DNA of 48,358 nucleotides from Candidatus Diapherotrites archaeon ADurb.Bin253 (GTDB lineage Archaea > Nanobdellota > Nanobdellia > Pacearchaeales > GW2011-AR1). The notes below the pieces were generated by a model. That model saw only the letters and a list, made by a program, of their open reading frames with translations, ran no database searches and had not been told where the DNA came from. A program made the translations under genes and the position numbers. Location: the NCBI GenBank assembly GCA_002069705.1, contig MWBV01000004.1, positions 1 to 48,358 on the forward strand. Reading direction: 5' to 3'. This document shows positions 8,106-45,859 of the stretch, piece by piece (the stretch's first letter is position 1; each line of letters starts with the position of its first letter).

Positions 8106-11100
8106 ATGGCAAAAATAATAAGAAAGAAAATAGGAGAAATGAAGTTCAGTTTATTTAGTCCTGAACAAATTAAAAAATTATCATGTGCTAAAATAGTTAC
8201 GCCTGAATTGTATGATATTGATGGATATCCTGTTGATGGTGGATTAATGGATTTAAGATTGGGTGCTGTTGATCCTGGAGTAAGATGTAGGACTTGTGGT
8301 GGAAGAATAAAAGAATGTTTAGGACACCCGGGAAGTATTGATTTGGCTAGACCATTGATTCATTTGAAATATGTTCCTTTAATTGAAATGGGTTTAAGAT
8401 GTTTTTGTAATGATTGTGGAAAATTAATGTTAAGTGAAAAGGATTTAGAAAAATACACTCCAAGTCAGAGAGCTAAAAAAGCTAAAGATGCAAAAAAATG
8501 CCCTTATTGTCAGGCAATTCAAGAAAGAGTTAGGCTTGATAAGCCAACAACATTTTATAGAGGAAAAGTAAGAATATTCCCAACTGAAATAAGGGAACTG
8601 CTTGTTAAAATACCTGATGAAGAATTAAGGAAAATAGGAGTAAATCCAAATGCATGCAGACCTGAATGGGCTGTTTTAACTTCACTTTTAGTTCCTCCTG
8701 TTACTGTTAGGCCTTCAATTATTCTTGAGACAGGTGAGAGAAGTGAAGATGATTTGACACACAAACTTTCAGATATAATTAGGGCCAATCAAAGATTATG
8801 GGAAAATCTAAATGCTGGTGCTCCTGAAGTTATTATAGAAGATTTATGGGATTTATTACAATTTCATATTACAACTTTCTTTGATAATACTGTTACAAGA
8901 ATTCCTCCTGCAAGACACAGAAGTGGTCAACCTTTAAAGACTATCACAGAAAGAATTAAAGGTAAAGAAGGAAGAATAAGAAAAAACATTGCAGGTAAGA
9001 GAGTAAATTATTCTGGTAGAACTGTTATTTCTCCTGATTCATCAATTGATATAAATGAAGTAGGTATTCCTTTTGAGATAGCAAGAATTGTAACTGTTGC
9101 AGAAACTGTTAATGATTTGAATTTGGAAAGACTAAAAAAATTAATTCAGAGAGGAGAAGAATATCCTGGTGCAAATTATGTTATAAGACCAGATGGAAAA
9201 AGAAAGAAGATTTCTATTGATTTAAAAGAAGAAATAATCAATGAGTTGTCTGCAGGTTATCAAGTGGAGAGACATTTGCAAGACGGAGATGTTGTTTTAT
9301 TTAACAGACATCCAAGTCTTCACAGAGGAAGCTTAATGGCACACTTTGTAAGAATTCTTCCAGGAAGAACATTTAGATTACATCCTGCTGCTGCAGCTCC
9401 ATATAATGCTGATTTTGATGGTGATGAGATGAACATACACTCTCCCCAGAATGAAGAAGCTAGAGCTGAAGCAAAAATACTTTTAGATGTTAAAAGAAAT
9501 TTAATTTCTCCTAAGAACAATACTAGTTTAATTGGATGTATTGGGGATGCAATAACTGGAAATTATTTAATGGGATTAGAAGAATTTCCAGTAGAGTATG
9601 CAAATCAATTACTTTTTAATTCAGAAGTAGATGCACAATTCACAAAGAAAACTGTTTCTGGAACAGAAATTTTCTCAAAGATACTTCCTAAGTTTAATTT
9701 TTCAAATGAATCTATGACTATAAAAGACGGAGAAATTGTGAAAGGGGTTATAGATAAGACCGCATTTGGAAGCGAGGATGGGGAATTAGTTAAAGTTCTT
9801 GATAAAACAATAGGAAGAGAAGAAACATTCAAGACAATAAAGAGAGCATTTAATTTAGGAAAAAATTATTTAAGTGGAAGAGGAATAACAATAGCAGTTA
9901 ATGATTTGGATTTAAATGAAGATATTCTTAAACATTGCGAGGAAGTTATTGAAAAAGCTCAGAAGAAAACTCAGGAAATAATTGATTCAGATAGAGATGG
10001 AACTCTTGAATTAATTCCTGGTAAAACAAAGGAAGAATCAAGGGAAATTAGAATACTTCAAACTCTTAATGAAGTAAGAACAAAAATAGGTGAAATTGTA
10101 AAGAGAGAATTCCCATCTGAAAATCCTGTTAGTAGTATGATTAAATCAGGTGGTGGAGGAAACATACTTAATATAACTCAGATGGCATCTTGTGTTGGAC
10201 AGCAGGCTCTTGGTAGCAAAAGAGTTGACTTTGGTTATAATGATAGGACATTATCTTTTTTCAAGAAAGGAGATTTATCTTCTAAGGCAAGAGGATTCAT
10301 TAAGAGTTCTTTTATAAGGGGATTAAAACCAGATGAATTTTTCTTCCAGGCAATTACAGGAAGAGATTCTCTTATGGATACTGGTTTAAGAACTCCTAAA
10401 TCAGGTTATTTATATAGAAGACTTGCTAGTGCTCTTCAAGATTTAAGAGTAGAGTATGATGAGACAGTAAGAGATAGCAATAATAATATAATTGAATTCA
10501 AATATGGTGATGATGGAATTGATGTAACTAAATTACATCTTAAGGAAAAACTTGATTCTGGTGAAGCAATAGGTATTGTTACTGCCCAATCTTTTGGTGA
10601 AGGTTCAACACAGATGGTATTGAGAACATTCCACATGGCAGGAGTATCTGAAATGCAGGTTACAACTGGTTTACCAAGATTAATTGAAATATTCGATGCA
10701 AGAAAGAAACCTTCTTCTCCTAAGATGGAAATTTATCTCAATAAAGAATTCAACAATGAAGATGGTGCAAGATTTGTTGCTGAGAAAATAAAAGAAGTCA
10801 AGCTTAAAGAAATTGCATCAGAAATTAATGTTGATTTTAGTGCAAGGAAGATAGAAATAAAAGTAGATAAAGAAGGATTAAAACAAGCACATTCTACAGT
10901 TAAGAAAGTAGTTGAGAAATTAAATGAACTAGGATTTAAGGTTAAGGAAAAGCAAGATTATATCTATTTAGATGCTGATGATAAAATTGGGTTTAAAGAT
11001 TTGTATAAGTTAAAAGAAAAACTCAAAGAAACAATAATTTCAGGAGTTAAAGGAGTTGAACAGATATTGGTTGTAAAGAGAGATAACAATTTTGTTATAA

Positions 11101-11597
11101 CAACTCTTGGAACAAATCTTAAAGAGATTATAACTATGAAAGAAGTTAATTCTTATAAAACAATTTCAAATGATTTCTATGAAGTTGCTGAGATATTTGG
11201 AATAGAGGTTGCAAGAGAATTACTAATGCACGAGATAACTGAAGTTCTTAAGTCACAGGGATTAGATATTGATATAAGACATTTGAAACTTGTTACCGAC
11301 GCTATGACCAATTCAGGTGATATTAAAGGAGTTACAAGAATGGGAATTATTGCACAGAAGTCATCTATACTTGCAAGAGCTACATTTGAAACACCTGTAC
11401 CTCAATTTGTTAAGGCTACAGTAAAAGGTGGAAATGATAAATTATTGAGTGTAATAGAGAATATTATATTAAATCAACCAGTACCGGTTGGAACAGGATT
11501 ACCTGGATTACTTGTTAAAGTAATTGGACCTTTGACAAAAAAAGAATCTGAAAAAAAGACAGCAGATTCAAAGATTGTCAATAAAGTAAATAAGTGA
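8106..11597 (+). CDS. rpoA: DNA-directed RNA polymerase largest subunit, A' and A'' fused in one ORF (Rpo1)
   Basis: A' motifs (CRTC, GKRVNYSGRTVI, catalytic NADFDGD) and A'' motifs (GEAIG..AQSFGE..TQM.LRTFH, GLPRLIE, RATFE, PVPVGTG) lie in one 1163-aa frame. Confidence 0.97.
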   Translation: MAKIIRKKIGEMKFSLFSPEQIKKLSCAKIVTPELYDIDGYPVDGGLMDLRLGAVDPGVRCRTCGGRIKECLGHPGSIDLARPLIHLKYVPLIEMGLRCFCNDCGKLMLSEKDLEKYTPSQRAKKAKDAKKCPYCQAIQERVRLDKPTTFYRGKVRIFPTEIRELLVKIPDEELRKIGVNPNACRPEWAVLTSLLVPPVTVRPSIILETGERSEDDLTHKLSDIIRANQRLWENLNAGAPEVIIEDLWDLLQFHITTFFDNTVTRIPPARHRSGQPLKTITERIKGKEGRIRKNIAGKRVNYSGRTVISPDSSIDINEVGIPFEIARIVTVAETVNDLNLERLKKLIQRGEEYPGANYVIRPDGKRKKISIDLKEEIINELSAGYQVERHLQDGDVVLFNRHPSLHRGSLMAHFVRILPGRTFRLHPAAAAPYNADFDGDEMNIHSPQNEEARAEAKILLDVKRNLISPKNNTSLIGCIGDAITGNYLMGLEEFPVEYANQLLFNSEVDAQFTKKTVSGTEIFSKILPKFNFSNESMTIKDGEIVKGVIDKTAFGSEDGELVKVLDKTIGREETFKTIKRAFNLGKNYLSGRGITIAVNDLDLNEDILKHCEEVIEKAQKKTQEIIDSDRDGTLELIPGKTKEESREIRILQTLNEVRTKIGEIVKREFPSENPVSSMIKSGGGGNILNITQMASCVGQQALGSKRVDFGYNDRTLSFFKKGDLSSKARGFIKSSFIRGLKPDEFFFQAITGRDSLMDTGLRTPKSGYLYRRLASALQDLRVEYDETVRDSNNNIIEFKYGDDGIDVTKLHLKEKLDSGEAIGIVTAQSFGEGSTQMVLRTFHMAGVSEMQVTTGLPRLIEIFDARKKPSSPKMEIYLNKEFNNEDGARFVAEKIKEVKLKEIASEINVDFSARKIEIKVDKEGLKQAHSTVKKVVEKLNELGFKVKEKQDYIYLDADDKIGFKDLYKLKEKLKETIISGVKGVEQILVVKRDNNFVITTLGTNLKEIITMKEVNSYKTISNDFYEVAEIFGIEVARELLMHEITEVLKSQGLDIDIRHLKLVTDAMTNSGDIKGVTRMGIIAQKSSILARATFETPVPQFVKATVKGGNDKLLSVIENIILNQPVPVGTGLPGLLVKVIGPLTKKESEKKTADSKIVNKVNK

Positions 11598-23400: not shown

Positions 23401-24009
23401 TTAATCAATAAATTTGACAAACATAAATCCAGGTATTTCTTTTTCAATAATATATTTTCCTGAGATTTTTCTTATTGCAGTTAGAGTCTGAAGAAATCCT
23501 GAGCCCAGAGGAGCAACTATTATTCCATTATCTGCTAATTGGTCAAGTATTTCATGAGGTATCTCTTTTAGAGCTGCACTTATTAAAATTCTATTAAATG
23601 GGGCTTCTTCAAATTTTTCTTTCCCATTTTTATTATATATTTTAACATTAGAGTATTTTTTTAGTTTTTCAACTGAGAGGTCTGCTAATTCTTTTACAAT
23701 CTCTGCACCATAGGCTTTTCCTTGTTCTCCTATTATCTCTGTTATGAGTGCCAGAGTGTATCCACATCCAGAACCTATTTCCAATACTTTTTGATTTTCT
23801 CTAAGTTTTAAAAGAGAGAGTACTAGTGCTATTGTTGAAGGTTGTGAGATTGTTTGGTCATTTGTAAGAGGCAGAGCAATGTCTTCATAAGCTAATCTCT
23901 GGAATCCCTCACTTACAAAATCCTCTCTTTTAACATTGCAAAATGCTTGAATTATGTTATCTTTAAATCCTTTAGCCCTCAAACTCTTAATTAACCCCTC
24001 ACGATCCAT
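23401..24009 (-). CDS. pcm: Protein-L-isoaspartate O-methyltransferase
   Basis: REDFV, AYED.ALP, QTISQP, VLEIGSGCGY, APFNRILISAA and G.IVAP.G. MDREG at 24009 is the preferred start. Confidence 0.93.
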   Translation of the reverse strand: MDREGLIKSLRAKGFKDNIIQAFCNVKREDFVSEGFQRLAYEDIALPLTNDQTISQPSTIALVLSLLKLRENQKVLEIGSGCGYTLALITEIIGEQGKAYGAEIVKELADLSVEKLKKYSNVKIYNKNGKEKFEEAPFNRILISAALKEIPHEILDQLADNGIIVAPLGSGFLQTLTAIRKISGKYIIEKEIPGFMFVKFID

Positions 24010-24132
24010 TAAATATAGAAGCATAACTTTTATTTAATTGTTTTGAAAAAACATCTTCCCTAATATTAATGAATATATTAACCTTTAAATAATCTTTTTT
24101 CATTGTGAATATAGAAGAGAGGGGAAAGATAA

Positions 24133-24774
24133 ATGGGGGAAGAAATGAAACAACTACGAATCTTAAAACAAGAAACAACTAAATCATGTGGCATTGCTTG
24201 TTTAAGGAGCATTATTAATTATTATGGGGGGAATTATTCTGAAAAAGATATTTGGAAGAAACATCAATCGTTTGGAAAAGGAGAAGAAATTAGAAGCCCT
24301 ATATTAAGTCTAGGTGTTACTTCCCTTAAATTTGGTTTAGATGTTCAATATATGGGGTATAATCCTATAATTGTAAACAATAATAAATATCCAGATAATC
24401 TAAAGAAATCTTTGGAATTAAAATCAAAAAATTATTTTAGTTTTGGAAAATATTACGTTGATCAAGCTTTGCAGTTTTTGAAGCTTGGAGGAAAGGCTAT
24501 TACAGAAAAATTGAATATTCAAAAGTTAAAGAAAATATTAGATAAAGAGAAATTTTTTTTGGTTGAGGTAAGACCTGCTTTTATTAGCAAAAAATCCTCT
24601 GCTGAAATAGACATGAATCACAAAGTTATTGTCATAGGATATGATAAAAAAGGTTTCAAAATACTTAATCCAAGCGATTGTAAAGAGTATGTTTGGGATT
24701 TTGAGAGTTTCTTGATTGCTTTTTATGCTTCAATACCAGAGATATTAGTTATAAAAAAAGGAAGGAAGAGCTGA
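24133..24774 (+). CDS. Peptidase C39-like cysteine protease
   Basis: QETTKSCGIACL (Q..C), NHKVIVIGYD (His) and ILNP. Confidence 0.8.
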   Translation: MGEEMKQLRILKQETTKSCGIACLRSIINYYGGNYSEKDIWKKHQSFGKGEEIRSPILSLGVTSLKFGLDVQYMGYNPIIVNNNKYPDNLKKSLELKSKNYFSFGKYYVDQALQFLKLGGKAITEKLNIQKLKKILDKEKFFLVEVRPAFISKKSSAEIDMNHKVIVIGYDKKGFKILNPSDCKEYVWDFESFLIAFYASIPEILVIKKGRKS

Positions 24775-24825
24775 AATATAAAGAAATTCATAAAATAAAA
24801 TCTTCTATGATATTAAGAATATAAT

Positions 24826-27684
24826 TTAAACTTTAAGGCTTACAACTTTACTTATGCCTTCATGCATCGAGATACCATAAAGATTTGTAGCATTTGTGAT
24901 AACTTCATCATTGTGAGTTATAACAATATATTGTCCTTTCTGCATGTATTTTCTTAAGAGTCCTCCTAAACGTTCTGAGTTTCTTTTATCTAGAGCTGCA
25001 TCTATTTCATCCAATATATAGAAACAATAAGGATTAAGCTCTTGTATTGCAAATATTAATGAGAGTGCTACCATTGTTTGTTCTCCTCCTGAAAGAGAAG
25101 TAACATCAAAATACTTACCATGTCCTGTTTTAACTAATATTCCCACTCCTCCTTCAAAAGGTTCTTTAGGATTTTCAAGTTCAAGAGAAACCTGTCCTTT
25201 GACACTTATTTGTGCAAAATTTCTAGAAAATATCTCATTTAATTCTCCGAGAGTCTTAAGGAAAACTTTCTTTTTCTTTACATCAATATCATGGATTATC
25301 TTTAGGATGCTTTCTTTTTCTTTTGTTATCTTATTTGCTTTTTCATTTATTACATCGTATTCTTTTTTTATTTCATCATAGACTTCAACTGAACGCATAT
25401 TTACAGGACCTATCTGAGAAAATGCTTCCTGTATCTTTGCTAATTTTTCAGTTAAAAATTCCCTAGAACCTCTAATAGTCTCTATATCAGGAAAATTAAG
25501 CATATCTAATTCTAAATTCTCTATCTCTGCATCTATCTTTGCTTTCTCTATTTTGACATTATTTATTTCCTGTTCTATATTATATATGAAATTCTTTTTT
25601 ATAAGAGTGTCTTGATCATCTTTTCTTATTTTTGCCTGAAGGTCATCTCTTTCTTTTATCATTGCCTGGAACTTTTGAATTAGTTCTTCTTCTTGTTTCT
25701 TTTTCTTTTCAAGTATCTTCTCTTTTTCATCAAATTTCTTTTTAAAACCTGTAAGCTCTTCTTTAACATCTTCTTCTTCTCTTGAGAGTTGTTTCAAGGA
25801 AATCTTTAAACGTTCATACTCTCTCTGTTTAAAAGCAATTTCTGAATTTACATTTTCTTTTGTACGCAAAGATATTTCCTGAAGTTCAATTCTTGCAGTC
25901 TCGTATTTTTGTTCTACATTAGAATTCTCTTCTAATTCTTTTTCAAGATTATTCTTTAATTTCTCTATCTCAGCTAATTCTTTTCTTGAGATAATTATCT
26001 TGTCATTAAGACTCTTTATTGCATTTTTCTTTTCATTTATATTTGATATTTTTATTAAGTCCATTTCTCTCTTAGAAACCTCTGAAGATATTTTTTCTAT
26101 TTCTTGAGATAAAATTTCTTTTTTCATCCCTATTTGAGAGAGTTCTTTGTCTGAATCTTCTAGTTCTTTTGTAAGTGAAGATATTTTTGGATATATTTCT
26201 TTATGAATATTTTCTATATGTTCTTTTGTTATCTTGCTTTTACATAAAGGACAAATATCCATCTTGGATATTGTCTCAGTTATTTTTTTCTCTTTTTCAA
26301 TCTCTTTTTCACTTGAGAAAGAAATTTTTTCTAATTCTATCTGTCTCTTATTTAAATTTTCTAAAAGAGATTTTTTATTATATAAAGAAGATTTCAATTC
26401 TTCAACTGATTCAGGAGAAGTTCTTTTGTCAAATAATTGTCCTGATAGTGATTCTATTTGTTTGACTAAGAAATTTGATTCATTATCATAACCTTGGAGA
26501 GCAGATTTTTTATCCTCAAATTTTTCTCTTATTGATTTTAATTCTGATTTAATCATATAAAATCTTTTTCTTCTTTCTTCAAGCTTTTCAAGTTCTAATT
26601 TTTTTGATACTATTTCTTTTTCTTTTTTAACAACAGAAGGAGATTCTTTTTGTAGTTCTTTAAGTTCAAGTTCTTCTTTTCGTATTGACTCTTGATTTTC
26701 TAATTTTTGTTTAAGAATAGAATTTATTTTATTTTCACTATTTTCTATTTTAACATTTAATCCTGCAATATCTGCTCTTATAGAAGTTATTTCTTGATTT
26801 AATTTTTCTTGTTCAAGTCCAGTTGATTCTTGTATTTTCTTATTTATTGCTACTATCTTCTCTTCGTAATTTTTTATACCTTCGCTAAGCTTGGATATTT
26901 CCTGCTTTATTTTTTCTATTTCCTTATTTTTCTTTGCTATTGATTCTTCTATCTCTTTCAGATGTGATTTTCTTTTATTTATGTCTACTTTTATTATACT
27001 TGCTTTGAATTTTTTTATATCTCCTTCAAGTTTTTTATATTTGAGTGCTTGCTGCCTTTCTTTTTCAAGATTATTCAAGTAAGCTGTCCTTGCTCTTAAT
27101 ATAGAGAAAACTTCTTTTTGTTTTTCTTCTGTTTTTTCAAGCTCTTTAAGGGATTTTTCTTTTCTTGATTCATATACTGAAATTCCTGAAACTTCTTCTA
27201 TTATTTTTCTTCTTTCTTCTGTATGCATTCTTACAAAATTTTGTATTTCTCCCTGTAGGATTATATTAAATCCATTAGGGTCTATACCTGCCTGAGCAAG
27301 CAATCCAAGGACTTCTTGTCTTGTTTTTGTTTCATTATTTATTTTGTAGATGCTCTGTCCGTTTAATCTTACTATTCTTTTTATAGAAATTTCTTCTGAT
27401 TCTATTGAAAAAGTTTTATCTGTGTTATCAAAAACAATTTCTACAATTGCTTCTTTTGCAGGAGAAGCTGCTTTAGTTCCTAGAAAAATAAGATTTCTTG
27501 CTTTAGCTGCACGCATAGATTTTATGCTTAATCTTCCTAAAACAAAACATAATGCATCTGATATATTAGATTTTCCTGAACCATTTGGTCCCAATATAAC
27601 ATTTATACCTGATGTAAAAGGTATTTCTGTTTTTCTTGGAAAACTCTTGAAACCATGCATTACCAGTCTTTTAATGTAAGCCAT
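24826..27684 (-). CDS. smc: SMC-family ATPase with condensin-type heads, a central CPLC motif and no recognisable hinge
   Basis: GFKSF, Walker A GPNGSGKSN, Q-loop IILQG, GPVNM, signature LSGGE, Walker B/D-loop YILDEIDAALD and ITH. Long coiled coils flank CPLC at residues 478-481 of 952. A GGAGGT Shine-Dalgarno-like sequence precedes the ATG. Confidence 0.93.
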   Translation of the reverse strand: MAYIKRLVMHGFKSFPRKTEIPFTSGINVILGPNGSGKSNISDALCFVLGRLSIKSMRAAKARNLIFLGTKAASPAKEAIVEIVFDNTDKTFSIESEEISIKRIVRLNGQSIYKINNETKTRQEVLGLLAQAGIDPNGFNIILQGEIQNFVRMHTEERRKIIEEVSGISVYESRKEKSLKELEKTEEKQKEVFSILRARTAYLNNLEKERQQALKYKKLEGDIKKFKASIIKVDINKRKSHLKEIEESIAKKNKEIEKIKQEISKLSEGIKNYEEKIVAINKKIQESTGLEQEKLNQEITSIRADIAGLNVKIENSENKINSILKQKLENQESIRKEELELKELQKESPSVVKKEKEIVSKKLELEKLEERRKRFYMIKSELKSIREKFEDKKSALQGYDNESNFLVKQIESLSGQLFDKRTSPESVEELKSSLYNKKSLLENLNKRQIELEKISFSSEKEIEKEKKITETISKMDICPLCKSKITKEHIENIHKEIYPKISSLTKELEDSDKELSQIGMKKEILSQEIEKISSEVSKREMDLIKISNINEKKNAIKSLNDKIIISRKELAEIEKLKNNLEKELEENSNVEQKYETARIELQEISLRTKENVNSEIAFKQREYERLKISLKQLSREEEDVKEELTGFKKKFDEKEKILEKKKKQEEELIQKFQAMIKERDDLQAKIRKDDQDTLIKKNFIYNIEQEINNVKIEKAKIDAEIENLELDMLNFPDIETIRGSREFLTEKLAKIQEAFSQIGPVNMRSVEVYDEIKKEYDVINEKANKITKEKESILKIIHDIDVKKKKVFLKTLGELNEIFSRNFAQISVKGQVSLELENPKEPFEGGVGILVKTGHGKYFDVTSLSGGEQTMVALSLIFAIQELNPYCFYILDEIDAALDKRNSERLGGLLRKYMQKGQYIVITHNDEVITNATNLYGISMHEGISKVVSLKV

Positions 27685-27801
27685 TAAAAATAACCTCCAA
27701 GTTTTTTTCTATTTGCATCACCAGTTTTTTATTCTTAGTCATTTAAAATAACCCTTAAAATCAGAAGTTTTTTGGGTTTTTAAGCATTAATATAGAATAT
27801 C

Positions 27802-28473
27802 TTAAATCAATTTTTTTTGAGTGAGTTTTTCTGAAGCTTTTTTCCAGGTTTCCCAAGTTTTTCTAAAGATGCTTGCATTTTTTGGGTTATCTGCGTGCAA
27901 TTCTAAAAAATGAATTGTAGCTGGGTCAGAAGTGTATCCTGAACCTATTTCATCTCCATACTTTTCTCTTAAGATATTCATTTCTTTTTCACGTATTGAT
28001 TTTGCTAATATTGATGCTGCTGAAACTGCGACATAGTTTTTGTCTGCTTTGTGTTCACAAGTTATTTCAAGGTTTGATAAATTATTTATTTTCATTTTTA
28101 AAGCATCAACCCATTTAGTTACACCAACAGAAGGACAATCAATAACCACTTTTATTTTTTTGTAACCCTTGTTTATCTTATTTATTATCTCTGCTATTTT
28201 TCTGGATTCAAGATTATTTAGATTCATTCCTGAATTTAAACTCTTATCAATTTCTTTTGGATGAACTACTATAATCTCAAAGGTTTCAGCTTTTTCTCTT
28301 ACTATATTTGCAAGAAATTCCCTTCTTTTTGGAGTTAATTCTTTGCTGTCTTTTATTCCTAATCTTTTAAATTCTCTTTCAATTGAAGTGTCAATTAAGC
28401 AACCAGCAATAACCATTGGCCCTATAACAGGTCCTTTTCCTGCTTCGTCTATACCAAGAATAAAATCACCCAT
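27802..28473 (-). CDS. rnhB: Ribonuclease HII
   Basis: GIDEAGKGPVIGPM, DSK.L, KAD..Y.AVSAASILAK and GSGY.SDP. Confidence 0.96.
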   Translation of the reverse strand: MGDFILGIDEAGKGPVIGPMVIAGCLIDTSIEREFKRLGIKDSKELTPKRREFLANIVREKAETFEIIVVHPKEIDKSLNSGMNLNNLESRKIAEIINKINKGYKKIKVVIDCPSVGVTKWVDALKMKINNLSNLEITCEHKADKNYVAVSAASILAKSIREKEMNILREKYGDEIGSGYTSDPATIHFLELHADNPKNASIFRKTWETWKKASEKLTQKKLI

Positions 28474-28547
28474 AATATTCTTAAAACAAGTTTGTTTTTA
28501 AAAATTGTTGTTGTAAATAGTGTAAAACAAGAAAATATGTGATAAAC

Positions 28548-29003
28548 TTAAAGAAGATCTAAAATATAATTTTCTTCAACAGCATATTCTGTTCCTAAGC
28601 TTAATTTTACAGGTATTTTGTATTCTTTTGAAAGCATCTTTCCCAACTTATTCATTTTTGAGAGATTTTTTCTTCCATTAACATTCAAAACCCATTTGGA
28701 ATACTCGTTTGCTCCTTTTTTAGAGTTATTGAACCATAATGTTCCTAGATATTCTGCCTTAGAGTGTTTAGAATATGGTATTCCAAAAAATGATTTTTTT
28801 ATTGGTTCTTTGTCTTCTAAAATTCCAATAAAACTTGAGAGAGGATATTTAGTCCTTACTTTTCCATGTCCTGCTATATCAAACCCTTGTTCTTTTATTT
28901 TTACTGATACAGGATATGCTGGACCATTTACAAAATCCAATTCTAAATTTTGTTCTATTTCTTCTACTTTTGTCTTTAGTGATTTTTCTAATACTTTTTC
29001 CAT
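28548..29003 (-). CDS. Hypothetical protein
   Basis: About 151 aa from MEKVL at 29003; no family recognised. Confidence 0.6.
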   Translation of the reverse strand: MEKVLEKSLKTKVEEIEQNLELDFVNGPAYPVSVKIKEQGFDIAGHGKVRTKYPLSSFIGILEDKEPIKKSFFGIPYSKHSKAEYLGTLWFNNSKKGANEYSKWVLNVNGRKNLSKMNKLGKMLSKEYKIPVKLSLGTEYAVEENYILDLL

Positions 29004-29103
29004 ATAATTACAGTCTTTTAGATGTTTTATAAACATTTATATGAGTTAATCAAAGCCATTATATTCGAAGAATTTAAAAACGAAAAACATCTTTGAAATA
29101 GAT

Positions 29104-29179
29104 AGCGGGGTAGAGCAGTCTGGAGTGCTCGTCGGGCCCATAACCCGGAGGTCGTGTGGTTCAAATCCCACCCCCGCTA
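29104..29179 (+). tRNA. tRNA-Met(CAU), initiator type
   Basis: Acceptor AGCGGGG/CCCCGCT with A1-U72, three G-C pairs closing the anticodon stem, CAT anticodon and TTCAAAT T-loop. The T-stem has one extra nucleotide. Confidence 0.9.
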
Positions 29180-29193
29180 CTTTTGATTTTAAA

Positions 29194-29403
29194 ATGAACC
29201 ATTGGATAAAGATACTAATTCACCTATTGATATTTGTGGATTTACTTTTTCTTTCTACTTTAAGTGATTTTTTTGCAGTGTTATTTGTATTGTATATTGC
29301 CTATCTTATTCTTTTAGGAGTTAAATTATCCATAATTTATCTTGGAAAAATTATGAGAGGAGAGAATAAAGGCAGAAAAAAAGCAAAAAACCCTAAAACT
29401 TAA
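29194..29403 (+). CDS. Small membrane protein
   Basis: 69 aa from the ATG at 29194, with two hydrophobic helices and a basic tail. Confidence 0.6.
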   Translation: MNHWIKILIHLLIFVDLLFLSTLSDFFAVLFVLYIAYLILLGVKLSIIYLGKIMRGENKGRKKAKNPKT

Positions 29404-29425
29404 ATATAAGTTAAACCTTAAATAA

Positions 29426-29956
29426 ATGATGGGAAGAGAGGTGAAAATATATTTTGCTTTCTTGTTTTTAATTTTAATTGCAGGGATTGTTTGTGCTTAT
29501 CCTAGTTTCTCTTTAGTAAATGAAGATACAAATTCAAAAAAAGCAGTTATTGTTTACAATGTTGACCCTATAGAAGTCATTAATGATTATTCAACAGTAA
29601 TTCAACTTAATTATCTTTACGGAGATTTTGCAGATTTAATAGAGTATTTAAGAAATACAAAAATAATGACTATTCTTTATTATAATGGGGATATTAATTC
29701 TGAAACTGTAAAATATCTTGAAGAAGAATCTGGAGTTAATTTCAGAAGATTCTTGAAAAATGTGAACAAAGCTCAAAAATTAAATTCTTTAAATGAAGAA
29801 GAGATACTTAATACTCCTGAAATAATAATTAGTGGAAAGTCAATTGAACAACAGAATTCTGTTAAATTCACTTTTGTGACTAGTTTAACTATTATAATTA
29901 TAATTTCTATGATTGTGGTTGTAAAGTCCATGTCTAAGGAAAAGAAAAAAAGATAA
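29426..29956 (+). CDS. Secreted or membrane-anchored hypothetical protein
   Basis: N-terminal signal-like helix, C-terminal TM helix and a lysine-rich tail. Confidence 0.7.
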   Translation: MMGREVKIYFAFLFLILIAGIVCAYPSFSLVNEDTNSKKAVIVYNVDPIEVINDYSTVIQLNYLYGDFADLIEYLRNTKIMTILYYNGDINSETVKYLEEESGVNFRRFLKNVNKAQKLNSLNEEEILNTPEIIISGKSIEQQNSVKFTFVTSLTIIIIISMIVVVKSMSKEKKKR

Positions 29957-29965
29957 GGTAATGTA

Positions 29966-30012
29966 TTAGTAACTACATATTAAAAAATAAAATTAATTTA
30001 GTAACTACATAT
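29966..30012. repeat. 15-bp direct repeat with 32-bp period
   Basis: ttagtaactacatat occurs at 29966-29980 and 29998-30012. Confidence 0.85.
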
Positions 30013-30139
30013 GTAAATTCTGATTATACGAACTTTAATTTTCAAGAAGCCTTTAAAAATCTTTGCTTTATCGACGACAAATTTAAATACCCTGAAGGCG
30101 AGTTAAAATTGATTTAAATGAATTCCTATACTTTTTACA

Positions 30140-30910
30140 ATGAAAAGAAAAATGCCTCTAATCGCACTTGCACAAATAAAATACAATCATACAGGAAGAC
30201 ATAATGTTGACAGAATAAAGAAATATATTGTTCTAGCTGCTGAAAAAAAGGCAGATATTGTGTGTTTTCCTGAAACTTGTATAAATAAAGCTCAAAAATT
30301 ACCTTTAAATCACAAATTAATAAAAGAGATTCAAGAAACCTGTAAAGAACATTCTATTTGGGCAATAATAACAGATAATTTTATTTCTAAAGGAACACAT
30401 TATAAAATGGCTATTTTAATTAATAGAGAAGGAAAAATAAAAGGAAAATACAAGAAGATACATCTTTATGGTGATGGAGTTGAAGAAAACGGCAAAAGAA
30501 TTTTTGTAAGAGATACTGATTTTGGTAAGATTGGAATTGCTATTTGTTGGGACTTGGCTTTTCCAAAACTATTCAGAAAAATGAAAAAAGCAGGTGCTGA
30601 AATTGTTTTTTGTCCTTCTTATTGGGGATATGAAGCTAAAGCCCATAAAGAAGAACCTAAATTAAATGAATTGAATTTATTGAAATCAATGGTGCTTTCA
30701 AGAGCTTTTGAAAACTTGAATTTTGTATGTGTGTGTAATCCTTATAAAAAAGAATGGGATTTAATTGATTATTCTGCTATTGCTTCACCACATAAAATTC
30801 TTACAGAGTTGTATGATAAAGAAGGTTTAGTTATGTCAAAAATTAATTTAAATGAAATAGAAAAATTCACTAAACTTTACCCTGGTAAAAAACCTGGTGA
30901 AGAAAAATAA
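30140..30910 (+). CDS. Carbon-nitrogen hydrolase (nitrilase/amidase superfamily)
   Basis: Catalytic E-K-C triad in FPE, YKKIHL and ICWD; SRAFEN. Confidence 0.92.
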   Translation: MKRKMPLIALAQIKYNHTGRHNVDRIKKYIVLAAEKKADIVCFPETCINKAQKLPLNHKLIKEIQETCKEHSIWAIITDNFISKGTHYKMAILINREGKIKGKYKKIHLYGDGVEENGKRIFVRDTDFGKIGIAICWDLAFPKLFRKMKKAGAEIVFCPSYWGYEAKAHKEEPKLNELNLLKSMVLSRAFENLNFVCVCNPYKKEWDLIDYSAIASPHKILTELYDKEGLVMSKINLNEIEKFTKLYPGKKPGEEK

Positions 30911-30912
30911 AT

Positions 30913-31476
30913 TTATATTTTCTTTAAAATCTTTTTTTCAAGTTTCATTAAAATAAAAAAACCTATAATTGCGAATAAACCAGTTGTTGCAAATACTAAT
31001 TCAAATCCTATTCTCTCAGCTAACAATGCTCCAACTCCTGCTGTTATTGCTGTTCCTATACTTACAGAAGATGAATAAATTGAGTACTGGAATCCTCTTT
31101 TTCCTTTTTCAAGATTAGATGTGAATAAACTTGACCAAGAAGGATATGCAAATGCTGCTGCAATACCATAAACAAATTGAATTATATAAATATGGTAAAT
31201 ATGTGTTGAGAAAATATATCCTATTGGAACTAAAACAAACAAAGCAGTTCCTAATCTCAACATCCATAATCTATCTTTAGGATTAAATTTGTAAGCAAAT
31301 AAAAGCTGAAGAAGTGCATGAGTTATCATGAAAATTGCACTGGCTACTCCTGCTGCAGTTATTGTTCCTCCAACAAGATTATCTTTTATGAATATTGCAA
31401 GAATAGGAGAAATTAAACCAAAACCACTTAAAACAAATATGTCTGATATTATTAAAAGTTTTAATGTTTTGTTCAT
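30913..31476 (-). CDS. Half-size MFS-like transporter (about 6 TM)
   Basis: 187 aa with six hydrophobic helices and MFS-like P.W..L....L....RG and G...G..LAERIG motifs. Confidence 0.8.
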   Translation of the reverse strand: MNKTLKLLIISDIFVLSGFGLISPILAIFIKDNLVGGTITAAGVASAIFMITHALLQLLFAYKFNPKDRLWMLRLGTALFVLVPIGYIFSTHIYHIYIIQFVYGIAAAFAYPSWSSLFTSNLEKGKRGFQYSIYSSSVSIGTAITAGVGALLAERIGFELVFATTGLFAIIGFFILMKLEKKILKKI

Positions 31477-31597
31477 ATTTGTCTTTTACCTCAGGGTAAT
31501 TAGAAAATTTTGATTATAAATCTTTTGAAATAAGATTATTGAAAAACCATATATTTATAAGGATTTTAGGCAAATATTTTAATATACTCAAATATGA

Positions 31598-31678
31598 GCC
31601 GCCTTCGCATAGTGGTATTGCAGTGGATTGCTAATCCACGCCCTTCGGGGCTGGCAGGTTCGATTCCTGCAGGCGGCG
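31598..31678 (+). tRNA. tRNA-Ser(GCU)
   Basis: Acceptor GCCGCCT/AGGCGGC, anticodon arm GTGGA-TTGCTAA-TCCAC, long variable arm GCCC-TTCG-GGGC, T-loop TTCGATT and G discriminator. Confidence 0.96.
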
Positions 31679-31690
31679 TATTAAAAAATA

Positions 31691-32341
31691 TTAGTTTCTT
31701 TTCATAACTAAGTAACTTGTTCTATTTTTTGGAATATTTGGCCAATCAATAATTATTTGTCCATGAAAACCATTTTGAGTAAAAATCCTCGCAGTTTCTT
31801 TTAATTCTTGTTCACTTTTTGGATAAAATTGAATAACGAGAAGTCCGTTTTTGTTTAAAACAGAATAAATTCCTCAAGCTATTCTTTGTATTTCTTGTTT
31901 ACCCTTAATCCATTGAAGTGCAGAAACAGAAACAACTCCATCAAATTTACGACCTTCAAACAATTTTCCAACATCCTTCATATCTCCAACATATGCTTCA
32001 AATCCTTTTTCTTTGGATTTACTTATCATCTTTGGAATTAAATCCATGCAAGTTACATTATATCCTTCAGAACAATAGACTTCTGCAGTATATCCTGGAC
32101 CAGAGCCAATATCTAATAAAGACTTTCCAGAATCTAATTCTAAAAGTTCTAAAACTCTATAAGCTATTTTTTCTTGTGCTCTTCTCATACCTCCAGAACG
32201 AGAATATTTTTCTACTTCTTCATCAGTATAATAAAGAAGAGGATTTCCTAAATCTTCCTCAGGTCTATTATTTTTTACAACCCATCCTTTATCTTTTTTT
32301 GAGTTTCCTTTTCTTCTTTGATTTTTTTTATTTCTTATCAT
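31691..32341 (-). pseudogene. Bud23/WBSCR22-like class I SAM methyltransferase interrupted by one in-frame TGA (31874-31876)
   Basis: RPEE...P..YY..EE..KY, LLDIGSGPG, MDL.P.M, FDGVVSVSALQW; after the TGA, 60 more in-frame codons (GIYSVLNKNGLLVIQFYP...GFHG...DWP...YLVM) run to a TAA at 31691-31693. Confidence 0.8.
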
Positions 32342-32438
32342 AAAAAATTTAATTTCTCTGTTTTTATAAATATTATAATACCTGCTAGTATTAACAATTT
32401 ATGATAGGTTTTTAAATAATCATTTCGTATACTTATTT

Positions 32439-32597
32439 ATGGCAATGGTTGATTTAGAGGACATCCATTCAATAGAGAGGGCAAAGAAAAAAAATTCTGT
32501 AAGTCGTAAGCACATTTATTGTCAAAAGTGTGGTCGTGCAAAACGCTGTCATGATCCAGAGTGCACTCAATTACATTGTAATTGTGGACAACTTTAA
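32439..32597 (+). CDS. 52-aa cysteine-rich microprotein (putative zinc finger); not in the ORF track
   Basis: ATG at 32439, TAA at 32595-32597; MAMVDLEDIHSIERAKKKNSVSRKHIYCQKCGRAKRCHDPECTQLHCNCGQL. A TTTTTAAA box lies about 25 nt upstream. Confidence 0.65.
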   Translation: MAMVDLEDIHSIERAKKKNSVSRKHIYCQKCGRAKRCHDPECTQLHCNCGQL

Positions 32598-32619
32598 ATT
32601 TCAAAGAGTATTGGATAAC

Positions 32620-32904
32620 ATGGACAAAATAGACATAATAGATACTGAAGTAGATGACTTTGAAGATGAAGAAGAATTAGATGATGAAATTGAAGATGAA
32701 GAATATGAGGATGAGAGTGAAGAAGAAAAAATAGAAAATGAAAGATATGAACAATACGCAAATTTAATAAAACAAAAGACAGACAGAGAATTAATTGAGA
32801 GTATTTCTGTTAGATTATTTTCATTGGAAACAGATATAAAACATATAAGAGATGATTTAGTAGATTTGTATAATCTTGTACTTGAAAATCAGGAAATTGA
32901 CTAA
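32620..32904 (+). CDS. Highly acidic small protein
   Basis: 94 aa from the ATG at 32620, with a D/E-rich N-terminal half and a heptad-like C-terminal helix. Confidence 0.65.
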   Translation: MDKIDIIDTEVDDFEDEEELDDEIEDEEYEDESEEEKIENERYEQYANLIKQKTDRELIESISVRLFSLETDIKHIRDDLVDLYNLVLENQEID

Positions 32905-32929
32905 TTGAATTGTATAAATAAAATAATCT

Positions 32930-34300
32930 TTAAGTTGGTCTTGGGTTATAAGAGGTTATTAATTTTATGAAATATTCTAGTTTTTCTTTTACTTTCAATT
33001 GTATTATTGCCTTAGAAGTTTCAACTTGTCTAACTTCTTTTAATTTTGGTAATATAAATATTGAAGGTAAAATTCTTAATACTGTACTTAAAAGAAATAC
33101 AGAGAGTATTGCTCCTAATCCAAATATAGAAAATGATGCTGAACCTGAAAGTTGTCCTCCAATCAATCCTCCTAAAAATGAACCTATTGAATTAACAAAT
33201 CCAAAATAAGTGAAACAGAGTATTATCTTTGGCTTTGTTACTGCATCATAAATGAAGTTAGATACTGAGAGATTATATGCTGCCCATACAAACCCTGAAA
33301 AGAATTCAACTGCAAAAAGATACCTTATTAAAACCCATTGTGGAGAGTTCATCAATAATAACGAAGCTATCCATAATAAAGGCACAAATGAAATCAAGAA
33401 TCCTGATATTTTCATAACTTTAACTGTTCCATACTTATCGATTTTTTTTCCTATAAATGAAAGGAAAAATATAGGCGAGACAAGTGAACTTAAAACTATT
33501 AAAGTGAATGCAAAATAAGAAAGCTGTAATTCTTTTAACATATATACTGAAAAAAACGGAGATGCTATTACAACAGCAAAAGACATCAAAGATGTAAATA
33601 TAACAAATCTTCCAAAATTATTAGAATGCATTTTTTTTGCAAATTGTAAAAAGCTGAAAAATGCTTTATCGTCTCTTGTTGGTTGTGGTTCATACTGCTT
33701 TTTTAAGAAATGAAATGAAAAATATCTTCCTATTGCAGCTAAAGAGAAAAGTAAAATAAATCCTAAGAAAACTTTTTCTTCTTTAAAAGAATCAAGTATA
33801 ATACTTGCTGTAATCATGCTTATTGCTATAACAAATCCATTTATCCTACTCCTTTTACTGAAAAATTCTCCTCTATTTGTTTCAACTAAGTCCTGCATCC
33901 ATGAAGTCCAGGCAGGAGAGGCAATTAACCCTGAGATTATTATTATTGAATAACATATTATCAAAAATAATGAAGCATAAATTAGTTTTAATTGAAAAAA
34001 GAAATATGCAACTCCAACCAAAAGCAGGGGTATCCAGAAAAATGCCTGAATGAATATGAAAGGCAAAACCATATTCTTTCTAGATTTTTTGTAATAAGCT
34101 TTACTTAAAAAAATTCTTAATATATTTGCAATAAGAGTTGGAAGAACTTCTAATATACCTATTAATTTGTTTGAGAGTCCTAATGAAAGTGCATAAGGAG
34201 TTATGTATTTTAACCCCATACCTTCCATTACACTAGAAGAAGCACCATCTTTGAGACTATATTTCTTTCCTTGTTCCTTCAATAATCTTTCTTCTTCCAT
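32930..34300 (-). CDS. MFS transporter (about 12 TM)
   Basis: 456 aa with about 12 hydrophobic helices; PAWTSWMQDLV...RG and GKKIDKYG (MFS motif A-like). Confidence 0.9.
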   Translation of the reverse strand: MEEERLLKEQGKKYSLKDGASSSVMEGMGLKYITPYALSLGLSNKLIGILEVLPTLIANILRIFLSKAYYKKSRKNMVLPFIFIQAFFWIPLLLVGVAYFFFQLKLIYASLFLIICYSIIIISGLIASPAWTSWMQDLVETNRGEFFSKRSRINGFVIAISMITASIILDSFKEEKVFLGFILLFSLAAIGRYFSFHFLKKQYEPQPTRDDKAFFSFLQFAKKMHSNNFGRFVIFTSLMSFAVVIASPFFSVYMLKELQLSYFAFTLIVLSSLVSPIFFLSFIGKKIDKYGTVKVMKISGFLISFVPLLWIASLLLMNSPQWVLIRYLFAVEFFSGFVWAAYNLSVSNFIYDAVTKPKIILCFTYFGFVNSIGSFLGGLIGGQLSGSASFSIFGLGAILSVFLLSTVLRILPSIFILPKLKEVRQVETSKAIIQLKVKEKLEYFIKLITSYNPRPT

Positions 34301-34372
34301 ATATTTCCATATCCATCCTTCCCTCCTCGGTTAATAAGTCTGAGAAATAGATAAATTGTATTATTTAAAAAC

Positions 34373-35197
34373 CTATCTCGTGATATCAGAAGTCTTTTTC
34401 CATTGAATATAATTCTTTTCAAGTATATCTATTACAGCTTGTCTTTGTTCACTTTTACCTAATCCTTTCCAATCCAAGACAACAAAATCTACTGGTTCCA
34501 CTGTTTTTTTTATTGTTTCAAGAATAAATGTTTCTGATATTGGCATAACATACTCTGGAATTATGTGGGCAAAAGCAACATTTGATTTTAATTGAAGCTT
34601 ATTAAAACCAGGGCAATAATGCGGTCCTCCTAAACCTACTGCTATTTCTCTATATTTGTTTTCTTGAAATTCTTCTATTGTCTCTTTTATTGTTTTTGCA
34701 AGTATGAATCCTGCTCTTCTGTCTACCCATTCTGTTTCAGTTGAACCTATTTCAATGAAAACACAGGGTTTGGAAATTAATGGACCGTGATGAGTGCATT
34801 CAAGAGTTACCTTGTAATCTAAAGAGGCATTCTCTGCATTTTCTTGAAGCTTTGTGAACAAAAGTTTATTGAATAATGCAGAAGCTGGACAGACTTTTTC
34901 TGGTTCTCCTCCAAAATCTGCAGTTCTAAAATTTCCAGGAGCATGAACAGACAAACTCTTTTCTTTTTTCTCTGATTGATGTTTTGAAGCAAATATTATT
35001 AAGTCATATTGATTTATTTTTTCCAAATCCAAATTATTCGTATATATTGTTTCTTCTTCAACAAAATATAAATCAAAACTAGGTTTATTTCCCCATGATG
35101 ATAAAAGAGGATTTTCTCTAAATTGAGAAAGATGATTTGTAATATTCATGCCAGCTTTATCTTTTTTACTTGCTAGGACCAAGTATTTTTGAAACAT
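34373..35197 (-). CDS. dtdA: D-aminoacyl-tRNA deacylase, archaeal DTD2 type
   Basis: FASKHQS, LSVHAPGN, TLECTHHGP, FIEIGSTE and GLGGPHY. Confidence 0.93.
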   Translation of the reverse strand: MFQKYLVLASKKDKAGMNITNHLSQFRENPLLSSWGNKPSFDLYFVEEETIYTNNLDLEKINQYDLIIFASKHQSEKKEKSLSVHAPGNFRTADFGGEPEKVCPASALFNKLLFTKLQENAENASLDYKVTLECTHHGPLISKPCVFIEIGSTETEWVDRRAGFILAKTIKETIEEFQENKYREIAVGLGGPHYCPGFNKLQLKSNVAFAHIIPEYVMPISETFILETIKKTVEPVDFVVLDWKGLGKSEQRQAVIDILEKNYIQWKKTSDITR

Positions 35198-35251
35198 AGA
35201 AGTAAAATAAACAAACCATTTAAATTATTTTTGATTATAAAATTCAACAAT

Positions 35252-35557
35252 TTATCTATATTTATCACAGAATTCTTCTTGTACTTTTGCAAGATGATTC
35301 TTAAATTCTTTAAATTGTTCAAAGTATTCCTTGGAATGTGTATTATAAGATTCTAATGAATCTAAGAGATTTTTTGCTTTATTTAATTTTCCTATTAAAT
35401 CTCCATTAAAACCTTCTTGTCTAAATAAATATTCTAAATCGTCAAATTTATCTAGTGCAGCTGTTGGATGAAGTTCTCTGCAATCAGAAACTATTTCCAA
35501 AAAATACTCCACTGCTTTATCCTTTGGACTGAAACCCTCATATCTTCTATATACCAT
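35252..35557 (-). CDS. Hypothetical protein
   Basis: 101-aa ATG-started helical ORF. Confidence 0.6.
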   Translation of the reverse strand: MVYRRYEGFSPKDKAVEYFLEIVSDCRELHPTAALDKFDDLEYLFRQEGFNGDLIGKLNKAKNLLDSLESYNTHSKEYFEQFKEFKNHLAKVQEEFCDKYR

Positions 35558-35647
35558 ATTAGATTTTAGTGAAACACTCTTTTTTATGTATGTGTACTAA
35601 TATAATAACTTTTTTAAAGTATTCTATACAGGAAAATAAACAATAAA

Positions 35648-35902
35648 ATGAAAAATAAACAAGAAAATATGGTTAAAATAACATACAAAGATAAAGTTGA
35701 AAGAATATATGGCATTTTAGAAGAATGTGAAGCAAAGGGTAATGCTGAAAGAGAAAGTTCTATAAAATTACTTCAAGAATCTTTCTCATTGTATAATGAG
35801 GTAATATCTTTTAAAGGGACTAGATATTGTTCAAGAAATTTATCTGATGTTCCAACGAGAATAAATAACCTTGTAACAAAATTAATGGAATATAATTCTT
35901 AA
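35648..35902 (+). CDS. Hypothetical protein
   Basis: 84-aa ATG-started ORF divergent from the previous one. Confidence 0.55.
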   Translation: MKNKQENMVKITYKDKVERIYGILEECEAKGNAERESSIKLLQESFSLYNEVISFKGTRYCSRNLSDVPTRINNLVTKLMEYNS

Positions 35903-35948
35903 ACTAATATAAAAAATAAAAAGGAGATTAAAGAAAAATAAAGTTCTC

Positions 35949-36134
35949 CTATTTTCTATTAACAAAATAATAAACTATTGCAGTGATTATGCTAAATACT
36001 ATTGCTACAACTGTCCAGAGTATTTTATACCCACTTGACATTTTTTTCTGATTTGCCCAGACATCATAAATAACCCAGACAGCACAGATTAAAGCAACAA
36101 TACCAACTAAAGTTCCTCCAATTCCTAATGCCAT
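35949..36134 (-). CDS. Small two-TM membrane protein (PLDc_N-like)
   Basis: W.IYDVW......K.LW.V......I.AIVYYF pattern; AGGAGGT Shine-Dalgarno-like site upstream. Confidence 0.75.
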   Translation of the reverse strand: MALGIGGTLVGIVALICAVWVIYDVWANQKKMSSGYKILWTVVAIVFSIITAIVYYFVNRK

Positions 36135-41127: not shown

Positions 41128-42039
41128 ATGAATAAAATGAAAATATTAGGATTAATTTTTGTGTTCCTCTCTATGATTTTGTCTTTGGCAAATATATTCT
41201 CTGTTAAGATAACAGGAGCAATAATTGGTATTGGTGTTAAAAGTTCTTTAATTACAATATTTACATTAGTTTTTTTGTTTCTTGGAATTTTCTTTTTAGG
41301 TAATTTAGAAAAAAAAGTTTCCAATTGGGTTAAAGCTGCCGCAATTGCAGGAAGCATTGGCCTTATTGCAGCTCCAGCTTATCATGCAAGAAAAGATAAA
41401 CTAAAAAAAAGAACCAAAGAGAATGTTGAAATAAATAAAGAAGTAAAAGTTGTTTCTCCATATATGACTACACAAGGAAGATTTGAAAGAACTTACAGAT
41501 GGGATAAGATATTAGATGAAATTGAAGATAAATATGAATTACCAAGAGGAATATTAAAAGGACTTGTCATGAGAGAGAGCTATGGAGACCCTTTAAGATT
41601 AAATGCTATGGGAGATGGTGGAGCAGGATTGTTTATGTTTCAACCAAGAACAGCAAAGGCTTATGGATTAAAGGTTCATGGAACTTCTGACAGGTCTAGT
41701 GCAGACAAAGTCCACGGGGCTGAATTAAAGGAATTGGTTAAAAAGCATAATTATGATTATGGAAAATTAGCTGTGATAGATGAACGATTTGATGTAAGAA
41801 AATCTGCAGAAGCAGCAGCAAAATACCTTAGAGATGATTTCAAGAGATATGGTTCTTGGGATAAGGCCCTATCAGCATATAACCAAGGGAAACCTGCCCC
41901 GAATGCATCTGAAACAAAACATGTTAAAGCAGTTAGAGAATATCAAGCATACTATAATGAAAGAGATAAAAAAGATCATAAATATTCAACGCAGAAAACA
42001 AACACTAAATCAAAGGCTAAAAGGCAAAGAAAAAGGTAA
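41128..42039 (+). CDS. Membrane-anchored lytic transglycosylase (SLT domain)
   Basis: L..L...ES (RES, catalytic Glu), GGAGLFMF.P.TA, DERFDV, A.YL and ALSAYNQG are the SLT motifs. The N-terminus has 2-3 hydrophobic helices. Start probably at 41128 or 41137. Confidence 0.88.
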   Translation: MNKMKILGLIFVFLSMILSLANIFSVKITGAIIGIGVKSSLITIFTLVFLFLGIFFLGNLEKKVSNWVKAAAIAGSIGLIAAPAYHARKDKLKKRTKENVEINKEVKVVSPYMTTQGRFERTYRWDKILDEIEDKYELPRGILKGLVMRESYGDPLRLNAMGDGGAGLFMFQPRTAKAYGLKVHGTSDRSSADKVHGAELKELVKKHNYDYGKLAVIDERFDVRKSAEAAAKYLRDDFKRYGSWDKALSAYNQGKPAPNASETKHVKAVREYQAYYNERDKKDHKYSTQKTNTKSKAKRQRKR

Positions 42040-42093
42040 GTTTTGATTTTCAAAAATCTTAAAAACTAATCACTCTATTAAGTTTAAGTAAAA

Positions 42094-44892: not shown

Positions 44893-44974
44893 CTACCTAC
44901 CGGTAATCCAAAAAATTTACTCTTTTATTATAACAAAGTTTAAAAGGAGATGTCGCTAAACCAATATATACAAA

Positions 44975-45781: not shown

Positions 45782-45859
45782 ACAAGAATTCTTTTATACA
45801 TCTATTAATTAAAATTAAGTAATCAAAACATATAAAAAACCTTATTTTTTAAATATAAT

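Follow-up and report, generated by a model that had tools for sequence, protein, structure and literature searches.

What closes the apex of an SMC (structural maintenance of chromosomes) protein that has no hinge? The question is raised by the smc gene on contig MWBV01000004.1 (contig C4) of the metagenome-assembled genome (MAG) Candidatus Diapherotrites archaeon ADurb.Bin253 (GCA_002069705.1), a member of an order of Nanoarchaeota (DPANN) that databases label Pacearchaeota or Nanobdellota; the stretch analysed, 48,358 nucleotides from the first position of the contig, is called the window below. The hinge is commonly treated as a defining part of these proteins, and it has been suggested to bind DNA and to serve as the gate through which DNA enters. 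Here we show that the 952-residue product of this gene has SMC heads with intact ATPase motifs, arms that fold back, no hinge and an apex homologous to the hook of Rad50, that it is an orthologue of canonical SMCs, and that it occurs together with ScpA and ScpB. Very probably, the gene is the orthologue of the archaeal Smc of Smc-ScpAB in which, at the root of the order, a CPxC zinc hook of Rad50 type took the place of the hinge of about 200 residues and of the adjacent arm segments, and its product is predicted to act as a zinc-linked homodimer that organises the chromosome.

SMC-type heads

A sequence-only reading of the window had proposed condensin-type heads with a zinc hook at the apex. 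All the head motifs that it quoted are found in the translated open reading frame (ORF), which runs from ATG to stop: GFKSF (residues 11-15), GPNGSGKSN (32-40) and LGRLSIKSMRAAKARNLIFLG (49-69) in the N-terminal head half, GPVNM (759-763), LSGGE (864-868) and YILDEIDAALD (889-899) on the C-terminal side, and ITHNDE (922-927) and GISKVVSL (943-950) further towards the C terminus. The gene and its parts are as follows.

24826-27684, minus strand: smc gene (952 amino acids and stop codon), an orthologue of archaeal SMC in which a zinc hook stands where the hinge would be
27181-27684, minus strand: N-terminal half of the ABC ATPase head, residues 1-168, from SMC_N, the alignment with Pyrococcus Smc and the alpha/beta fold
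27568-27591, minus strand: Walker A motif GPNGSGKS, residues 32-39
within the N-terminal head half: Q-loop, Q144
26263-27180, minus strand: N-terminal coiled-coil arm, residues 169-474, helical in AlphaFold2
26161-26298, minus strand: Rad50-type zinc hook region, residues 463-508, CPLC followed by KSKITKEH
25207-26226, minus strand: C-terminal coiled-coil arm, residues 487-826, helical in AlphaFold2
24829-25206, minus strand: C-terminal half of the head, residues 827-952, aligning to the Pyrococcus Smc C-terminal head (3kta_B, 1xew_Y)
25081-25095, minus strand: signature motif LSGGE, residues 864-868
25000-25020, minus strand: Walker B motif YILDEID, residues 889-895
within the C-terminal head half: H-loop, H924

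The family scores place these heads with SMC. Pfam reports SMC_N at 1e-50 together with generic AAA models, and among the NCBIfam models SMC_prok_A (TIGR02169) scores 529 bits and SMC_prok_B 498 bits, against at most 102 bits for the Rad50 models. The SMC_prok_A alignment falls into two stretches that skip the hinge positions of the model, residues 3-473 corresponding to model positions 1-462. In a sequence search of the Protein Data Bank (PDB), the best matches were the Pyrococcus Smc heads 5xei, 5xns and 4i99 at 286-352 bits (residues 1-248 align with 5xei), followed by bacterial Smc and eukaryotic SMC2, SMC3 and SMC1, with Rad50 heads at about 55 bits. Walker A, Q-loop, signature, Walker B and H-loop together make up a split ABC ATPase head of the SMC type, and residues of all these motifs are invariant in 57 orthologues (G32-N40, Q144, S865-E868, D892, E893 and H924). 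In a maximum-likelihood (ML) tree of head domains from SMC and Rad50 proteins, the SMCs of the order group in one clade (support 90/99) that falls among hinge-bearing SMCs from the same class; the Rad50 of this genome sits on a branch of length 10. A head sequence of Rad50 type was thus found neither by the family scores nor by the PDB search or the head tree, and the grouping with SMC that the sequence-only reading had expected of the heads is borne out.

A central CPxC hook and a length near that of Rad50 (the NCBIfam Rad50 models have 872-895 positions) might suggest that the protein is the organism's own Rad50/SbcC repair ATPase with unusually SMC-like heads. However, the head scores and the tree exclude Rad50, and the genome carries a separate mre11-rad50 operon on contig C2, where a 390-residue metallophosphoesterase abuts a 683-residue protein that matches Rad50 best among the families and carries a CPTC hook of its own. 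The smc gene has no adjacent Mre11/SbcD partner, its upstream neighbour being the gene for RNase HII. A Rad50/SbcC identity is therefore refuted, and we give it practically no weight. What the protein shares with the Rad50/SbcC hook (PF04423; 1L8D, 6ZFF, 5GOX) is the apex, that is, the CPxC, the flanking pattern and the helical hairpin; it differs in its heads. Contig C58 (1850 bp) holds another piece of an SbcC/Rad50-like protein, truncated by the contig at either end and bearing a CPLC hook, which could derive from a second repair ATPase, a mobile element or a contaminant.

A zinc hook in place of the hinge

Pfam gave no SMC_hinge (PF06470) match in the 952-residue protein at E<=1, and the AlphaFold models contain neither a globular apex nor a cryptic hinge, as anticipated from the sequence. 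What occupies the apex instead is ICPLCKSKIT, whose CPLC spans residues 478-481 (nt 26242-26253), close to the protein midpoint at residue 476. The CPxC is present in all 120 of the closest database relatives and in 12 of 12 divergent full-length orthologues from other families of the order, and C478, P479 and C481 are invariant in the 57 orthologues, down to 35% identity. Since the coiled-coil arm around the hook has almost no other invariant residues, the CPLC is not there by chance, and the conservation on which the original proposal depended holds across the alignments.

The apex is related in sequence to Rad50 hooks. A profile of 84 residues around the motif matched the hooks of P. furiosus Rad50 over about 78 columns (1L8D, E=5e-7; 6ZFF, 3e-6) and human RAD50 at 0.08 (5GOX), and the pattern CPxC-x4-T-x-E-H is common to the SMC apex and the Rad50 hooks with equal spacing. 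In Pfam, Rad50_zn_hook (PF04423) matched 20 of 21 orthologue apex segments (best 8.8e-10). A search of all the genome's ORFs with the apex profile returned the SMC itself and the two Rad50-type proteins and nothing else. The Rad50-like hook read from a single sequence is thus upheld at the level of the family.

Structure prediction gives the same picture, all models being monomers. At full length, with the 57-sequence alignment, AlphaFold2 (predicted local distance difference test score, pLDDT, 79) returned helix from 169 to 826 with few breaks and a 12-residue turn at 475-486, and residues 400-560 modelled alone gave a helical hairpin at pLDDT 94. In a Foldseek search of the PDB with this apex model, 1L8D ranked first and 5GOX fourth, 6ZFF was matched with a TM score of 0.83 and 3.0 A, and there was no hinge structure among the 50 matches listed.

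Length and register of the arms

The helix breaks predicted by AlphaFold2 fall at 209-219, 346-354 and 416-423 in the N-terminal arm and at 587-589, 607-613, 729-740 and 759-764 in the C-terminal arm, and the breaks at 346-354 and 607-613 lie opposite each other across the arms. The protein is exactly 952 residues long in 84 of the 120 closest database relatives, which are 66-90% identical to it. From conserved head residues to the two cysteines the distances are 311 and 278 residues in most sequences, and in other families both are longer together (319/291, 327/316); this co-variation is consistent with selection on the length of an antiparallel arm. The fold-back in the AlphaFold2 model and the co-variation in length together identify a long intramolecular antiparallel coiled-coil arm. 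A dependence on arm length has been found in wild-type and in zinc-hook B. subtilis Smc (Buermann et al., PMC5344682), and the tight length conservation seen here matches the dependence of the engineered zinc-hook protein on arm length for function in vivo.

One gene with an exchanged apex

Orthologues of the 952-residue protein were identified in 118 of the order's 121 sampled genomes (61 of the 62 of high quality), among them assemblies of one or two contigs, and the identical protein is recorded on 28 contigs, the longest of 801,691 bp. The hinge has the complementary distribution. Within the order it was found in one genome of the 121, on contig C51 of this MAG. A further sample of 300 high-quality genomes of the phylum came almost entirely from other orders of the class; 278 of these 300 have a hinge, in frames mostly of 1140-1190 residues, and none of the sampled genomes with a hinge belongs to the order studied here. 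Six hinge-less genomes outside the order were considered as independent hook cases and rejected, five being without any SMC and one having only a fragment at a contig end.

The hinge on C51 has to be accounted for, since the gene in the window might be an assembly or binning artefact and the hinge-bearing protein the real SMC of the organism. The assembly (878 kb in 95 contigs) is 88.5% complete with 2.6% contamination, and C51 does encode the N-terminal 671 residues of an SMC with a canonical hinge. C51 is, however, a contig of 2320 bp, its protein is of bacterial type (SMC_prok_B 602 bits, SMC_prok_A 377 bits) with 25-29% identity to the archaeal SMCs of the class, and a hinge was found in none of the order's other sampled genomes. 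As the sole hinge in 121 genomes it is most likely a bacterial-type binning contaminant, and on the same grounds we rejected a native hinge-bearing paralogue. The window, for its part, is core archaeal chromosome. An assembly deletion is ruled out because the short form recurs in more than 100 independent assemblies, so that the concern about protein length attached to the first reading is settled; the distribution of the hinge, the spread of the orthologues and the bacterial-type scores of C51 refute the artefact, to which we assign a negligible probability.

The remaining question is whether the hook protein is the same gene as the hinge SMC of related archaea. Over residues 1-390 and 610-952 it is 40-46% identical to the hinge SMCs of sister orders, and in the head tree the clade of the order includes both the hook forms and the short forms described below. 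The gene order is also shared, the marker being the neighbouring gene:

27802-28473, minus strand: RNase HII gene (PF01351, 1.3e-46), directly upstream of smc on the same strand, used as synteny marker

The rnhB-smc order was found beside the hinge SMCs L055, L060, L062 and L063 in four sister-order genomes, and likewise beside the hook SMCs L013, L016, L018 and L019 and the short form L021. Orthology to canonical SMC is therefore indicated by phylogeny, one-for-one distribution and synteny. The distribution of the hinge, the hook orthologues, the head tree and the rnhB synteny together indicate that a single smc gene kept its position and that, at the root of the order, its apex was swapped, which makes the change from hinge to hook a replacement and not an addition. 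Relative to archaeal Smc (TIGR02169; Pyrococcus 5XEI, 5XNS and 4I99), the heads, the ATPase motifs, the antiparallel arms, the presence of ScpAB in the genome, the rnhB neighbour and the tree placement are the same; in contrast, the hook SMC lacks the PF06470 hinge and has the CPxC apex, in length it falls short by about 210 residues, its score does not reach the equivalog cut-off, and its central arm segments cannot be aligned by BLAST.

Zinc hooks on SMC-like heads are already known from archaea, in the archaea-specific SMC-related proteins (ASRP family: ClsN, Sph1/2; model NF045487), which combine a zinc hook with coiled coils and heads resembling those of SMC (PMC9389158). The present protein could belong there rather than with SMC, and the ASRP model does give a weak match of 112 bits. 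This is far under the 300-bit cut-off of the model, similar to the cross-score of 117 bits for the canonical hinge SMC L063 and well short of the 529 bits of SMC_prok_A; membership is unlikely, since a canonical hinge SMC does no worse on the same model. The complementary distribution of hinge SMCs, the rnhB-smc synteny and the retention of ScpAB also speak against it, as does the head tree of SMC and Rad50 sequences. We consider an ASRP identity very unlikely. The likeness to ASRPs lies in an archaeal origin, a head of the SMC superfamily, a coiled coil and a zinc hook, and the difference in that the hook protein is an SMC orthologue accompanied by ScpAB.

Three other observations concern the SMC proteins of these genomes. 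Some orthologues carry an insertion of about 520 residues with intein and LAGLIDADG domains (PF14890, PF14528), which sits in the Walker A loop immediately behind residue 36-38; carriers are P0024 and P0034 (1474-1476 residues) and the smc frames of about 1490-1516 residues in G101, G113, G105, G118, G030, G058, G060 and G034. Among the hinge SMCs of sister orders, frames of about 1700 residues also occur. Genome G017 encodes on its contig C20 a second, divergent SMC-type protein (L028, 1000 residues, 32% identity) with a central CPVC hook, whose long branch means that its tree position cannot be relied on; the main hook SMC of G017 is split over two contigs, and L028 could be a paralogue or a contaminant.

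Partners and predicted mode of action

The sequence-only reading had noted that mre11, scpA and scpB are missing from the window, which is correct; they lie on contigs C2, C15 and C3, respectively. ScpA is encoded at C15:678-1313 (42 bits, above the cut-off) and ScpB at C3:43715-44155 (114 bits), and these proteins are found in 58 and 60 of 61 genomes of the order, so that the same genome supplies both partners expected of an SMC. The chimeric SMC-Rad50 architecture that had been proposed is supported as such. However, since ScpA and ScpB and a separate Mre11-Rad50 pair are encoded elsewhere in the genome, the protein is not an orphan hybrid; it is the Smc-ScpAB of the lineage with a changed apex.

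By analogy with Rad50, two protomers would share one Zn2+ through four cysteines, and the shared zinc would give a homodimer linked constitutively at the apex. ATP would engage the heads, ScpA would bridge them and ScpB would bind ScpA, and the complex may organise the chromosome in the way of ordinary Smc-ScpAB and of the B. subtilis Smc that was engineered to carry a zinc hook. The prediction leans on two engineered exchanges, hook for hinge in that Smc (PMC5344682) and hinge for hook in Rad50 (PMC6969161). An SMC and a Rad50 with homologous hooks in the same cell might possibly also form mixed zinc-linked dimers.

Relatives without hinge or hook

Seven genomes of the order (G005, G006, G044, G036, G012, G004 and G029) encode SMCs of 781-898 residues (L021-L027) that have neither a CxxC nor a hinge, a stretch corresponding approximately to residues 400-570 of the 952-residue form being missing. 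In the head tree they branch at four separate points: three of these fall within the hook clade, where the hook was lost secondarily, and the fourth (L025-L027) is at its base. ScpA and ScpB are present in these genomes as well, including the single-contig G044. There are thus at least four sub-lineages without a hook, three of them clearly by secondary loss; if their proteins are functional, it would follow that Smc-ScpAB needs no dedicated apex dimerisation domain in vivo, which we regard as possible, if rather doubtful. A published parallel is with the hinge-less SMCs of marine Actinobacteria, reported to be without a CxxC (Sussfeld et al. 2025, PMC12153180). These too are natural SMC-type proteins that lack the hinge; being bacterial and without a CxxC, they are closer to the hook-less short forms than to the 952-residue protein.

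The short forms also bear on what the CPxC does in the proteins that have it. It might serve a single protomer, as a structural or redox site, or cap the hairpin, with dimerisation through heads and arms only or with the arms left unlinked. The co-occurrence of hook-less relatives with ScpA and ScpB fits such a role, as the apex link may not be required, and the models are all monomers. On the other side, only two cysteines are conserved per protomer, so that tetrahedral coordination of zinc would take two protomers; the Rad50 hook is matched over about 78 residues, with the CPxC-x4-T-x-E-H pattern at the same spacing; and the CPxC is invariant over deep divergence. We therefore consider a role confined to one protomer improbable, and favour a hook that would link two protomers through zinc.

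Several points weigh against the interpretation of the gene as a Smc whose hinge gave way to a dimerising Rad50-type hook. The organism is uncultured, and zinc binding, dimerisation, ScpA binding and action on DNA are predictions. The hook may have come either by recombination from Rad50 or by convergence. The apex segment of the window protein itself scores 21 bits with PF04423, under the gathering cut-off of 24.3 bits, and its 529 bits with SMC_prok_A are below the equivalog cut-off of 729.4 bits, although a score under the SMC equivalog cut-offs is expected because the hinge is missing. The Foldseek E-values for the hooks (0.03 or more) are not significant, which is to be expected of a fold as simple as a helical hairpin; we dropped Foldseek as proof of hook homology and relied on the sequence profiles instead. 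Finally, the short relatives without a CxxC show that the hook is not indispensable in the clade.

Genomic setting

The window has a GC content of about 29% and encodes RNA polymerase subunits B and A, EF-2, a class I tRNA synthetase and RNase HII. RNA polymerase subunit A is a single ORF of 1163 residues (8106-11597, plus strand) with Rpb1 domains 1-5; in most archaea this subunit is split into A' and A''. GC skew is +0.23 to +0.31 at 1-22000 and 42000-46000, coinciding with long runs of plus-strand genes, and falls to about zero or below at 24000-36000, where genes are on the minus strand. Upstream of the RNase HII gene, an ORF of 162 residues (28548-29036, minus strand) has no Pfam match.

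Significance for SMC biology

It has been shown by engineering that the hinge can be exchanged. B. subtilis Smc with its hinge replaced by the zinc hook of P. furiosus Rad50 is functional in vivo (PMC5344682, 2017), and Rad50 remains functional when its hook is replaced by the hinge of MukB or of B. subtilis SMC (PMC6969161). The sequence-only reading had argued that the hinge would be dispensable for loop extrusion if the hook SMC still carries it out. As a natural case the present protein does confirm this; the principle itself was not for it to establish, having already been demonstrated with the engineered chimera. In the searchable literature, the coverage of which is incomplete, we found no report of a natural zinc-hook SMC; what is reported is engineered swaps, the hooks of ASRPs and the actinobacterial hinge-less SMCs. 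Database entries for the relatives are named 'chromosome segregation SMC family protein', with no mention of the apex. What is new here is therefore a natural zinc-hook SMC across a whole archaeal order, on a principle known from engineering. The architecture is the same as that of the engineered Smc (PMC5344682), with SMC heads and arms closed by a Rad50-type hook, and differs in being natural, fixed in a whole order and apparently the only SMC of that order.

There is a practical consequence for genome surveys. The SMC sequences in PMC5344682 were gathered by a hinge-based search. Because such searches would miss hook SMCs and equivalog cut-offs score them low, surveys can misrecord SMC as absent or atypical in these DPANN genomes.

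A change throughout a widespread order from the hinge to an unrelated zinc link of four cysteines, with the heads, the arm length, the kleisin and ScpB kept, would indicate that keeping two arms joined is the main task of the apex, the same conclusion as that drawn from the engineered chimeras (PMC5344682, PMC6969161). The clade offers a compact natural protein for structural and single-molecule work, and the related genomes provide a graded series with hinge, hook or none; if the short forms are functional, this would be a natural progression from hinge to hook to nothing in which the role of the SMC apex could be dissected. A natural hook SMC would interest the SMC field both as a confirmation and as a useful model.

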